DNA of 47,404 nt from Escherichia coli (lineage in GTDB: Bacteria > Pseudomonadota > Gammaproteobacteria > Enterobacterales > Enterobacteriaceae), in NCBI RefSeq assembly GCF_003334335.1, contig NZ_QOWQ01000035.1; one strand, 5' to 3'. The notes under the pieces are model-generated. The model did no database searches, was not told the origin of the DNA, and was given only the letters and a program-made list of their open reading frames with translations. The translations under genes and the position numbers were made by a program. Below are positions 5,520-6,741 of the stretch, one piece after another; the first letter of the stretch is position 1; every line of letters begins with the position of its first letter.

Positions 5520-5635
5520 CCACTATTCCGCTGAAGGCGTAATTGTTTAAATAACATTACGCCGCCTGGCCTTAGGCCTTTTGAGTATGGCAACGTTTTC
5601 ATAAAAATTGCTGCAAACAAAAATGTCATACTTTT

Positions 5636-5665
5636 TGCGCGGGCCCACCCCGCGCTTTTTTTTGC
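5636..5665 (+). terminator. rho-independent terminator downstream of adiA
   Basis: Stem gcgcggg-ccca-cccgcgc followed by a run of eight T. Confidence 0.6.
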
Positions 5666-5843
5666 CTGTTATTTATCCTGTAAAAAAATATGTACATGAG
5701 AAATTACTATAAAAATTTGTACTATTAGTAAAACTCGTTATTTTTATGCATGTTTATATTCATCATACAATTATATAACCATTTCCCGGTATCGCTTTGC
5801 TTTAGCGAGAACTGGTCTTTTATTCGCACTCAGGAGTACATGT

Positions 5844-6605
5844 ATGAGGATTTGCAGCGACCAACCTTGTATTGTTTTATTGACTGAAAAAGATGTCTGG
5901 ATAAGGGTGAATGGGAAAGAACCTATTAGCCTTAAAGCTAACCATATGGCGTTATTAAATTGTGAAAATAATATTATCGACGTCTCCTCTCTTAACAACA
6001 CTTTGGTTGCTCATATTAGTCACGACATCATCAAAGATTACCTCCGGTTTCTGAATAAAGATCTCTCGCAAATACCAGTATGGCAACGTAGCGCTACGCC
6101 CATACTCACCCTGCCATGCCTGACGCCAGACGTCTTTCGCGTTGCCGCGCAACACAGCATGATGCCCGCAGAAACTGAGTCAGAAAAGGAACGAACACGC
6201 GCATTATTATTCACGGTGCTATCCCGTTTTCTCGACAGTAAAAAATTCGTTTCATTAATGATGTATATGTTACGTAATTGTGTAAGTGACAGCGTTTATC
6301 AAATTATTGAAAGCGATATTCACAAAGACTGGAATCTTAGTATGGTAGCCAGTTGTTTATGTCTTAGCCCAAGTCTGTTAAAGAAAAAGTTGAAAAGCGA
6401 AAACACCAGTTATAGCCAAATAATCACCACCTGCCGCATGCGTTATGCCGTAAATGAATTAATGATGGACGGTAAAAATATCTCTCAGGTATCACAGTCC
6501 TGCGGCTACAACAGTACGTCGTACTTTATTTCTGTCTTTAAAGACTTCTACGGTATGACGCCGCTGCATTATGTTAGTCAGCACAGAGAACGCACTGTCG
6601 CCTGA
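5844..6605 (+). CDS. adiY: AraC-family regulator of the arginine-dependent acid resistance system
   Basis: 253-aa ORF MRICSDQPCIVLL...; AT-rich gene between adiA and adiC. Confidence 0.93.
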   Translation: MRICSDQPCIVLLTEKDVWIRVNGKEPISLKANHMALLNCENNIIDVSSLNNTLVAHISHDIIKDYLRFLNKDLSQIPVWQRSATPILTLPCLTPDVFRVAAQHSMMPAETESEKERTRALLFTVLSRFLDSKKFVSLMMYMLRNCVSDSVYQIIESDIHKDWNLSMVASCLCLSPSLLKKKLKSENTSYSQIITTCRMRYAVNELMMDGKNISQVSQSCGYNSTSYFISVFKDFYGMTPLHYVSQHRERTVA

Positions 6606-6741
6606 TTTTTAACCTTAACGAAGAGCTATATTAATAACGGCATCAGCGATAACCCGGTCGATAATAATTCAACTATCGAATACAGGCGTATGATATGACG
6701 TAATTTATTGTCACGAAGCTCGCCTTCGCAGGAGTTTAATT

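Follow-up and report, generated by a model that had tools for sequence, protein, structure and literature searches.

Old, conserved low GC content of adiY, an H-NS-repressed regulator gene between adiA and adiC in Escherichia coli

The most AT-rich 1.2 kb (positions 5520-6741) of a 47,404-bp stretch of Escherichia coli DNA, analysed here as a whole and referred to as the window, is not a single element but a succession of four known parts: the adiA 3' untranslated region (3'UTR), the adiY promoter region, the adiY coding sequence (CDS) and the adiC promoter region (Table 1). The best explanation of the segment as a whole, which we consider very probably correct, combines this four-part anatomy with a low GC content that is old and conserved and with a regulator gene that is repressed by H-NS. 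The anatomy, composition and conservation of the segment and the core-gene status of the locus come from the present analysis, and H-NS binding and repression, the function of AdiY and the AdiZ small RNA are taken from the literature. Because the gene, its role as a regulator, its repression by H-NS and the adjacent small RNA have all been published already, the segment holds little discovery value; the low GC of adiY is likewise an ordinary finding, since it is an old, conserved family trait and the H-NS repression is known.

Table 1 Features of the AT-rich adiY segment and its upstream border
Feature	Position	Strand	Properties or basis
GalR operator, published, GTGGTTACGCTTTCA on the minus strand	5509-5523	.	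Spans the adiA stop codon; K-12 coordinate 4338257
adiA 3'UTR, putative Escherichia-type AdiZ (STnc1180) homologue	5520-5663	+	144 bp; GC 0.438, mildly AT-rich
Escherichia-specific 5' hairpin of adiA 3'UTR	5536-5563	+	Without counterpart in Salmonella
Long hairpin of adiA 3'UTR	5583-5633	+	RNA fold
Second GalR operator, published, ATGGCAACGTTTTCA	5587-5601	.	Within adiA 3'UTR; K-12 coordinate 4338179
Conserved 3' Hfq module of adiA 3'UTR	5608-5663	+	Sequence conservation
Intrinsic terminator of adiA/AdiZ	5637-5663	+	All-GC stem of 7 bp, loop of 5 nt, T8 tail (5656-5663)
adiY promoter region and 5'UTR	5664-5843	+	180 bp; GC 0.30; deepest AT trough
Conserved blocks of adiY promoter	5680-5696, 5716-5723, 5737-5744, 5758-5772, 5786-5793	+	Cross-genus conservation
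Candidate -10 element of adiY, TACAAT	5766-5771	+	Inferred; inside conserved block 5758-5772
Shine-Dalgarno sequence of adiY, AGGAG	5832-5836	+	Sequence
adiY CDS, AraC/XylS-family activator of adiA and adiC	5844-6605	+	253 aa; ORF; K-12 annotation b4116
adiY-adiC intergenic region, AdiY-dependent adiC promoter	6606-6741	+	GC 0.375

Sequence comparison gives about 99.95% identity of the whole window to K-12 MG1655, and the order melR, adiA, adiY, adiC, eptA is that of the K-12 annotation. Within the 1.2-kb segment only two substitutions, at positions 5643 and 6682, separate the two sequences. The names adiA, adiY and adiC given in the first-pass annotation are borne out by this gene order, by 100% identity of the AdiY protein to K-12 AdiY and by the scores of AdiA and AdiC, both of which exceed their own NCBIfam equivalog cut-offs. 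NCBIfam holds no AdiY-specific model; AdiY matches the AraC-type models GadX (the best), YdeO and HilD over residues 37-249, each below its own cut-off. The Pfam domains PF12833 and PF00165, i.e., the AraC-type C-terminal double helix-turn-helix, are assigned in precomputed results to the 99%-identical protein cluster P0001. Both His34 and His60, the pH-sensing residues of AdiY (PMC12826058), are present in the translation when it is read against that study.

With a GC content of 0.395, the segment lies below the whole window (0.530), and its z-score among all windows of 1222 bp is -2.67. Equally low values occur in 0.18% of the 1222-bp windows, and all 83 of these start within 5447-5549; the lowest, 5490-6711, has a GC content of 0.393, and the next lowest that does not overlap has 0.418. 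It had been claimed that the adiA-adiY intergenic region and adiY are more AT-rich than the flanking genes, and this is the case, with values of 0.361 and about 0.413 for the former compared with 0.527 for adiA and 0.537 for adiC. Indeed, adiY has the lowest GC content among the 41 annotated genes of the window and lies well over one standard deviation from their mean (mean 0.542, sd 0.051, z = -2.5). Its individual codon positions have values of 0.417 for GC1 (z = -2.5), the lowest in the window, 0.366 for GC2 (z = -1.0) and about 0.457 for GC3 (z = -1.95). The GC content expected from the residues of AdiY and the codon usage of the window is 0.480, and glycine, alanine, arginine and proline together make up 14.6% of AdiY compared with 26.4 +/- 4%. 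The observed GC3 is 0.16 below the 0.62 expected from local codon usage. The amino-acid composition of AdiY thus accounts for about half of the GC deficit of the gene, and synonymous codons ending in A or T account for about the other half. The profile is also uneven along the segment: the deepest trough lies at 5660-5800 (GC 0.255), and a GC-normal island at about 6000-6200 within adiY (GC 0.50) has a trough on either side.

Gene-free flanks need to be compared with other intergenic regions instead of the window mean. The window has 19 intergenic regions, with a mean GC content of 0.434 (sd 0.096). The two that flank adiY both fall within one standard deviation of this mean, and 7 of the 19 are as low or lower. 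The flanks are therefore AT-rich, as the first-pass annotation stated, but unexceptional for intergenic DNA, and part of that DNA is accounted for by the adiA terminator and the AdiZ small RNA; with no excess over other intergenic regions, their composition alone says nothing specific. They are ordinary intergenic DNA, and the sole outlier is the adiY gene itself. Similarly, the A/T tracts described at 5640-5800 are present, but the longest T tract (T8) is the U-tail of the adiA terminator. Over the whole segment, A/T tracts of at least 4 bases occur at 18 per kb compared with 9.7 per kb in the window.

Flexible TpA steps are the minor-groove feature reportedly preferred by H-NS (Gordon et al. 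2011). Their density is 41 per kb in the window, rises to 90 per kb across the segment and reaches 149 per kb at 5660-5800, and together with the AT excess over 1222 bp this fits H-NS-silenced DNA. H-NS is also said to nucleate at a high-affinity motif, TCGATAAATT (Lang et al. 2007). In the 1.2-kb segment this motif is not enriched: there are no matches with 0 or 1 mismatch, and the three matches with 2 mismatches (5971, 6301 and 6702) are approximately at the background rate of 1.3 per kb. To our knowledge, the high-affinity motif is not obligatory for H-NS binding.

The case for H-NS silencing of adiY is supported by published experiments, to which our analysis adds nothing new. Krin et al. 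(2010) found that adiY mRNA rises 5-fold in an hns mutant, that H-NS preferentially binds an adiY promoter fragment in vitro in competitive gel shifts, and that cells lacking H-NS are altered in arginine-dependent acid resistance (PMC2984483). As the same authors remark, adiY is missing from the H-NS target lists of early ChIP-chip studies (PMC2984483). The earlier proposal that the DNA is either H-NS-silenced or horizontally acquired thus holds in its first half, through these experiments and the fit of composition and TpA content, and fails for recent acquisition, as set out below. We infer that AT-richness is maintained here as a support for H-NS-dependent low expression. Even in the absence of selection for AT-richness, low expression together with amino-acid composition could yield the same pattern.

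A different account would have adiY AT-rich merely by way of a protein with few Gly, Ala, Arg and Pro residues and of the weak selection on codon usage in a weakly expressed gene, with H-NS binding being incidental. This account would fit the share of the deficit that amino-acid composition explains, the absence of H-NS motif enrichment and the typical intergenic composition of the flanks, and other weakly expressed genes in the window are also low in GC3 (rpiB 0.447, alsR 0.481 and alsB 0.497). We nevertheless consider it improbable. The GC1 of adiY, at the bottom of the window, and a GC3 well under the local expectation both speak against it, as do the recurrence of the deficit in every homologue and host examined and the effects of H-NS loss on adiY mRNA and on arginine-dependent acid resistance (PMC2984483).

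If low GC were the mark of a young islet of foreign DNA in the E. coli adi locus, the segment should be recognisable by its distribution and borders. Instead, of 5426 complete E. coli genomes, 5418 contain a match, and at least 80% of the 1.4-kb query is matched in 5405. The synteny melBA-melR-adiA-adiY-adiC-eptA-basRS-proP is common to Salmonella and C. amalonaticus, and adiY occupies the same site with the same neighbours in the Escherichia clades, E. albertii, Salmonella and Citrobacter. An AdiY scan of the genome collection returned only the Escherichia loci and two unrelated AraC proteins; the Salmonella, Citrobacter and outgroup loci were found by protein searches and contig look-ups. 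The window contains no tRNA gene and no ORFs for an integrase, a transposase or other mobility functions, and a search for island borders turned up no direct repeats flanking the segment, the repeats it did find being short, scattered and present in two copies. A plasmid search gave 12 matches, mostly to Mb-sized or mislabelled replicons, and no evidence for adiY on plasmids. IS elements are present at the segment in a minority of other strains only, one example being a promoter-proximal IS1 at 5711-5719.

The GC deficit recurs wherever the gene is found. In five other Escherichia lineages the GC content of adiY is 0.39-0.41. The values for adiY, adiA and adiC are 0.437, 0.543 and 0.564 in Salmonella and 0.444, 0.556 and 0.578 in C. 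amalonaticus, and adiY homologues on a Pluralibacter-like contig (0.456) and in Edwardsiella (0.427) reside in loci of 0.56. The gap in GC3 between adiY and adiA is steady across genera (E. coli, 0.137; Salmonella, 0.122; Citrobacter, 0.149). When changes at third positions are polarised within Escherichia, 12 run from AT to GC and 19 from GC to AT, which with only 31 substitutions is a weak test, and the equilibrium GC3 that this small sample implies, 0.41, is near the observed value for adiY. From these sequence comparisons there appears to be no sign of amelioration of adiY toward host GC. The young-islet reading can draw on the atypical composition of adiY at all codon positions and its rank as lowest in GC. 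It can also point to the DLP12 prophage region, which contains or adjoins both envY, the E. coli paralogue nearest to adiY (56% identity), and the related appY. Against the near-universal presence, the shared position and neighbours, the lack of mobility marks and the constant GC3 gap across genera, it is extremely improbable and effectively refuted. Recent horizontal acquisition, raised in the first-pass annotation, is accordingly not borne out, and the low GC has been retained at a syntenic site since before the split of Escherichia, Salmonella and Citrobacter. AT-rich, H-NS-bound DNA therefore need not be recently foreign.

An older origin is a separate matter. A reading to which we give an even chance is that an ancestor of the Escherichia-Salmonella-Citrobacter group gained an AT-rich AraC/XylS regulator gene, together with its promoter, at the adiA-adiC junction and that this gene has been AT-rich since. 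Such an insertion gains plausibility from outgroups in which the two genes adjoin without the regulator: in Xenorhabdus, adiA (72% identity) and adiC (81%) are 3 bp apart, and in Yersinia, Buttiauxella and Pantoea adiC adjoins a decarboxylase gene across gaps of 12-70 bp with no AraC gene. Each of these adiC-decarboxylase loci has a different genomic context. Published surveys find AdiY only in Enterobacteriaceae and AdiC also in Yersiniaceae, Morganellaceae and Lysobacteraceae (PMC8989999). In addition, AdiY diverges faster than its neighbours, with 79% identity between E. coli and Salmonella compared with 93% for AdiA and 94% for AdiC. On the other side, the comparison covered only four outgroup loci, and in three of the four the decarboxylase is only about 51% identical to AdiA and may belong to a paralogous cassette. 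The outgroups may instead have lost adiY, and duplication of a paralogue within the genome would look alike. The insertion concerns the history of the locus and does not conflict with the best explanation given above.

The adiA 3'UTR carries a putative homologue of AdiZ (STnc1180), a small RNA of the Salmonella adiA 3'UTR that binds Hfq (Kanda et al. 2025, PMC12746102). The Salmonella RNA is reported to be processed by RNase E, to accumulate as a small RNA and to base-pair with ptsG, pykF and dmsA, and the authors count Escherichia-Shigella homologues in the AdiZ family (PMC12746102). The E. coli sequence matches it in several respects: it directly follows the adiA stop codon in the same orientation, and it has the same 3' module, ATTGCTGCAAA...TGTCATAC followed by a U-rich stretch, the terminator and U8. 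The U-rich stretch, terminator hairpin and U tail fit the published description of the AdiZ Hfq module (PMC12746102). Identity over the module reaches 91% with Salmonella and 89% with Citrobacter, compared with only 47-61% at third codon positions. The predicted fold of the 3'UTR has an energy of -43.6 kcal/mol (z = -3.07). Both the terminator scan and the RNA fold support the terminator, which is invariant across Escherichia, Salmonella and Citrobacter save the loop-closing position 5643. Unlike Salmonella AdiZ, the E. coli 3'UTR has approximately 50 extra nucleotides in the form of the 5' hairpin, its 5' part is just 67% identical across 42 alignable positions, and the SgrS-like seed that acts on ptsG is not conserved in Escherichia (PMC12746102). 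AdiZ has no family in Rfam 15, and a homologue is absent from the annotation of NC_000913.3, the K-12 RefSeq entry, an omission worth flagging. A scan of 3000-8300 against Rfam (E <= 1) placed AgvB and ncS54 on the adiA terminator; both are sub-threshold, and neither is a family match. The two GalR operators come from the ChIP-chip table of PMC5110547, in which the site at K-12 coordinate 4338179 has a ChIP/input ratio of 6.9; the operator spanning the adiA stop codon was located in the window from the K-12 offset and from the sequence itself.

For the adiY promoter region, a sigma-70 consensus scan revealed no strong promoter; the promoter-like matches of that scan were as frequent as in shuffled sequences (5 compared with 4.3 +/- 2.0). 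A reporter fragment, PadiY, which corresponds to window positions 5537-5844, shows little activity and no binding by AdiY (PMC12826058). The gene is induced anaerobically by a mechanism termed 'as yet unknown' in 2025 (PMC12746102). A possible FNR box at 5753-5766 was rejected: it has 2 mismatches, a match quality found at chance rate, and its left half is not kept in Salmonella or Citrobacter. ArgR and ArcA boxes, judged by eye, have unsuitable half-site spacing. We tentatively suggest, while regarding it as rather unlikely, that the five conserved blocks, set in an adiY promoter of 25-30% GC that otherwise evolves fast, are sites of a further factor that counters H-NS and underlies the anaerobic induction, and that the Escherichia-specific 5' part of the 3'UTR, where there are an additional hairpin and two GalR operators, gives E. 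coli AdiZ targets or controls unlike those in Salmonella.

Taken together, the four parts very probably operate as follows. The strong adiA/AdiZ terminator, the sole convincing one in the terminator consensus scan, insulates adiY from the heavily acid-induced adiA transcript. H-NS binds the 180-bp, TpA-rich adiY promoter (30% GC) and represses it, and adiY is therefore transcribed weakly. AdiY detects cytoplasmic pH via His34 and His60 and activates adiA and adiC, and the adiY-adiC intergenic region supplies the AdiY-dependent adiC promoter. The terminator scan detected no terminator-like site after adiY. The primers of the published PadiC fragment match near the 3' end of adiY and just ahead of the adiC start, and this fragment is bound by AdiY at pH 6 (PMC12826058).

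The gene described here does not differ substantively from K-12 adiY (1996; Gallo et al. 2025, PMC12826058), being the same protein at the same site between adiA and adiC with the same two histidines. The arrangement also resembles the acid fitness island, where the AT-rich regulator genes gadX, gadW and gadE (GC of 0.410, 0.418 and 0.330 in K-12) stand beside a decarboxylase gene of host-typical composition (gadA, 0.540), have AT-rich upstream regions (0.30-0.35) and are reported to be H-NS-repressed; H-NS binds the adiY, gadE and gadW promoters (Krin et al. 2010, PMC2984483). Unlike that 15-kb island, which is largely restricted to Escherichia and Shigella (PMC8989999), the adi segment holds a single gene and is syntenic in Salmonella and Citrobacter. 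Within the AraC family, EnvY (b0566) shares 56% of its residues with AdiY along the entire protein, and like adiY, both envY (0.463) and appY (b0564, 0.317) have a GC content below that of their neighbours (nfrA, 0.551). Whereas adiY occupies a conserved chromosomal locus, envY and appY lie in or beside the cryptic prophage DLP12, a truly accessory context. Low GC is thus a stable trait of regulator genes of the AdiY/EnvY/AppY/GadX type in every homologue and host examined.

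The segment from the adiA 3'UTR to the start of adiC (5520–6741) has a GC content of 0.395, compared with 0.530 for the window, which confirms the AT-richness described in the first-pass annotation. Stretches of equal length with GC this low make up 0.18% of the total, and every one overlaps the adiY locus; the minimum lies at 5490–6711, and the lowest stretch elsewhere in the window has a GC content of 0.418. Among the 41 genes of the window (mean 0.542, s.d. 0.051), adiY, which encodes an AraC/XylS-family activator of adiA and adiC, has the lowest GC content (0.413, z = −2.5), whereas its neighbors adiA (0.527) and adiC (0.537) are typical. 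Thus, adiY falls outside one standard deviation of the mean, and the observation holds.

The flanks of adiY, also reported to be AT-rich, indeed have low GC (0.361 and 0.375) but are ordinary among the 19 intergenic regions (mean 0.434, s.d. 0.096), and four other AT-rich intergenic troughs in the window have GC equal to or below theirs. The compositional outlier is the adiY gene, not the flanking intergenic DNA. The A/T tracts noted at 5640–5800 correspond to a deep trough at 5660–5800 (GC 0.255, 149 TpA steps per kb vs. 41 in the window), although the longest T run is a terminator tail. The 144 bp directly after adiA have a GC content of 0.438, and adiY includes a stretch of normal GC at about 6000–6200. 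The other four troughs are melR/adiA (3054–3251, the adiA promoter region; 0.348), rdcA/yjdM (16639–17038; 0.312), rpiB/alsR (30124–30481; 0.338) and yjcS/ytcA (38862–39069; 0.332). Farther along, the phn operon (18308–29129) tends toward GC-rich (genes 0.555–0.627, GC3 0.69–0.76) and the als/rpiB cluster (29674–36603) has low GC3 (0.45–0.65) with normal GC1, a mosaic that enlarges the standard deviation of the window.

The identity of the locus is clear. Of 5426 complete E. coli genomes, 5418 contain a match to the 1.4 kb around adiY, annotated there as adiA, adiY and adiC, and AdiA and AdiC score above their NCBIfam equivalog cut-offs (1705 vs. 1167 bits and 892 vs. 574 bits, respectively). 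The whole window aligns with 4.296–4.344 Mb of K-12 MG1655 in reverse orientation at ~99.95% identity; the K-12 b4116 protein is identical to AdiY, and positions 5643 and 6682 are the sole differences within the segment.

Features in and around the adiY segment (window coordinates)
Feature	Position	Strand	Remarks
melR	2145–3053	+	ORF layout
adiA	3252–5519	+	ORF layout; GC 0.527
GalR operator 1	5509–5523		ChIP-chip report mapped to window (PMC5110547)
adiA 3'UTR	5520–5663	+	three hairpins, then terminator stem (7 bp, all GC) and T8; fold z −3.07
IS5 insertion, other strains	5570–5576		adiA 3'UTR
GalR operator 2	5587–5601		ChIP-chip report mapped to window (PMC5110547)
adiY promoter and 5'UTR	5664–5843		GC 0.30
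IS1 insertion, other strains	5711–5719		adiY promoter
adiY	5844–6605	+	ORF layout; GC about 0.413
IS903B insertion, other strains	6368–6377		inside adiY
adiY–adiC intergenic region	6606–6741		AdiY-dependent adiC promoter
IS1 insertion, many strains incl. ST540	6619–6627		adiY–adiC spacer
adiC	6742–8079	+	ORF layout; GC 0.537
eptA	after adiC	+	ORF layout

If the AdiY amino-acid sequence were encoded with the codon usage seen across the remaining 40 genes, adiY would have a GC content of 0.480, between the observed value of 0.414 and the gene mean of 0.542. Therefore, about half of the deficit comes from protein composition (Gly, Ala, Arg and Pro are 14.6% of residues vs. 26.4 ± 4%), and the other half is synonymous codon choice (GC3 0.458 vs. 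0.62 expected).

Horizontal acquisition was one of two readings first offered for this composition; several pieces of evidence argue against a recent event: (i) The locus belongs to the E. coli core genome and is syntenic across genera, with identical neighbors in four other Escherichia lineages, E. albertii, Salmonella and Citrobacter amalonaticus, and in each of these hosts adiY GC is 0.10–0.14 below that of adiA and adiC. (ii) Searches for tRNA genes, flanking repeats and mobility genes at the segment were negative. (iii) Third-position changes polarized with Salmonella and Citrobacter as outgroups, a small sample, comprise 12 AT-to-GC and 19 GC-to-AT; the implied equilibrium GC3 of 0.41 is near the current value, suggesting no amelioration. 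AT-richness is a trait of the AdiY-type regulator family: homologs have GC contents of 0.456 within a 0.558 locus (Pluralibacter-like) and 0.427 within a 0.562 locus (Edwardsiella), and K-12 envY, appY, gadX and gadW have 0.463, 0.317, 0.410 and 0.418, compared with 0.540 for gadA. An ancient insertion of adiY between adiA and adiC is plausible. In Xenorhabdus, 3 bp separate the two genes; in Yersinia, Buttiauxella and Pantoea, adiC adjoins a decarboxylase gene, in a different context in each, and an AraC gene is absent. A published survey found AdiY confined to Enterobacteriaceae (PMC8989999). AdiY also evolves faster than its neighbors (79% vs. 93–94% identity between E. coli and Salmonella). 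A Logan SRR400613 contig, whose AdiY-like protein is named for [Enterobacter] lignolyticus, has a different arrangement: hdeA is followed by an adiY-like gene (64% identity) and then adiC (94% identity), adiA is missing from this neighborhood, and a second AdiY-like paralog lies beside an RND pump gene.

Among the complete E. coli genomes that match most closely, at least 21 have an IS element inside the 1.4-kb AT-rich segment; ISKpn26 and ISApl1 insertions occur as well, and in strain 22F46 adiY is flanked on both sides by IS1, resembling a composite transposon. Elsewhere, tandem arrays at 17389–17668 (period 100 bp, 2.8 copies, ~300 bp or three units shorter than in MG1655) and 47040–47304 (period 113 bp) are REP/BIME-like by consensus reading.

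The proposal that adiY is silenced by H-NS is borne out by published work. In an hns mutant, adiY mRNA rises 5-fold and deletion of adiY lowers arginine-dependent survival, and H-NS preferentially binds the adiY promoter fragment in competitive gel shifts; Krin et al. remark that adiY is not among the targets listed by early ChIP-chip studies (PMC2984483). The AT content and TpA density of the segment are consistent with silencing; a scan of the segment for the H-NS high-affinity motif found no enrichment. The promoter comprises five conserved blocks amid a neutral-looking background, 62% identical to Salmonella, with a good Shine–Dalgarno sequence 7 nt ahead of the adiY ATG. The reporter fragment of Gallo et al. 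(5537–5844) had consistently low activity and was unbound by AdiY (PMC12826058). No terminator-like site was detected 3' of adiY. A weak FNR-like site, TTTATATTCATCAT (5753–5766), was rejected: it has two mismatches, matches this good occur at chance rate, and, although it overlaps a conserved block, its left half is not kept in Salmonella or Citrobacter.

In the mechanism favored here, the adiA terminator and AdiZ module shield adiY from adiA transcription, and H-NS keeps the AT-rich, TpA-rich promoter down, so that AdiY levels stay low. Protonation of His34 and His60 activates AdiY, which then turns on adiA and adiC (PMC12826058), and SgrS adds post-transcriptional repression of adiY. The AT-richness is old and stable. 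We infer that its part in keeping expression low through H-NS is what maintains it; it could alternatively be a by-product. The initial interpretation is thus partly supported, for H-NS and not for recent transfer, and everything essential about the AT-rich adiY locus is already known.

Two GalR operators, 78 bp apart, enclose the adiA stop codon together with the 5' portion of the 3'UTR; the one at 5587–5601 is kept within Escherichia and not in Salmonella. An exact 13-nt direct repeat, AGTATGGCAACGT, occurs at 5584–5596 in the adiA 3'UTR, overlapping that operator, and at 6077–6089 inside adiY (chance expectation roughly 0.02 in the region). In the 3' part of the 3'UTR, ATTGCTGCAAA...TGTCATAC precedes a U-rich stretch, the terminator and U8; this is the module known from AdiZ (STnc1180), a small RNA that binds Hfq and that RNase E processing releases from the Salmonella adiA 3'UTR, with homologs reported for an Escherichia–Shigella cluster (PMC12746102). 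The E. coli homolog (5520–5663) has no Rfam 15 family and is absent from the K-12 RefSeq annotation (NC_000913.3). Position 5643, in the loop-closing pair of the terminator stem, is G here, C in MG1655 and T in other Escherichia. The module is 91% identical to that of Salmonella and 89% to that of Citrobacter, compared with 47–61% at third codon positions of the flanking genes. The E. coli 3'UTR carries an extra hairpin that Salmonella lacks, an Escherichia-specific element at 5536–5563.
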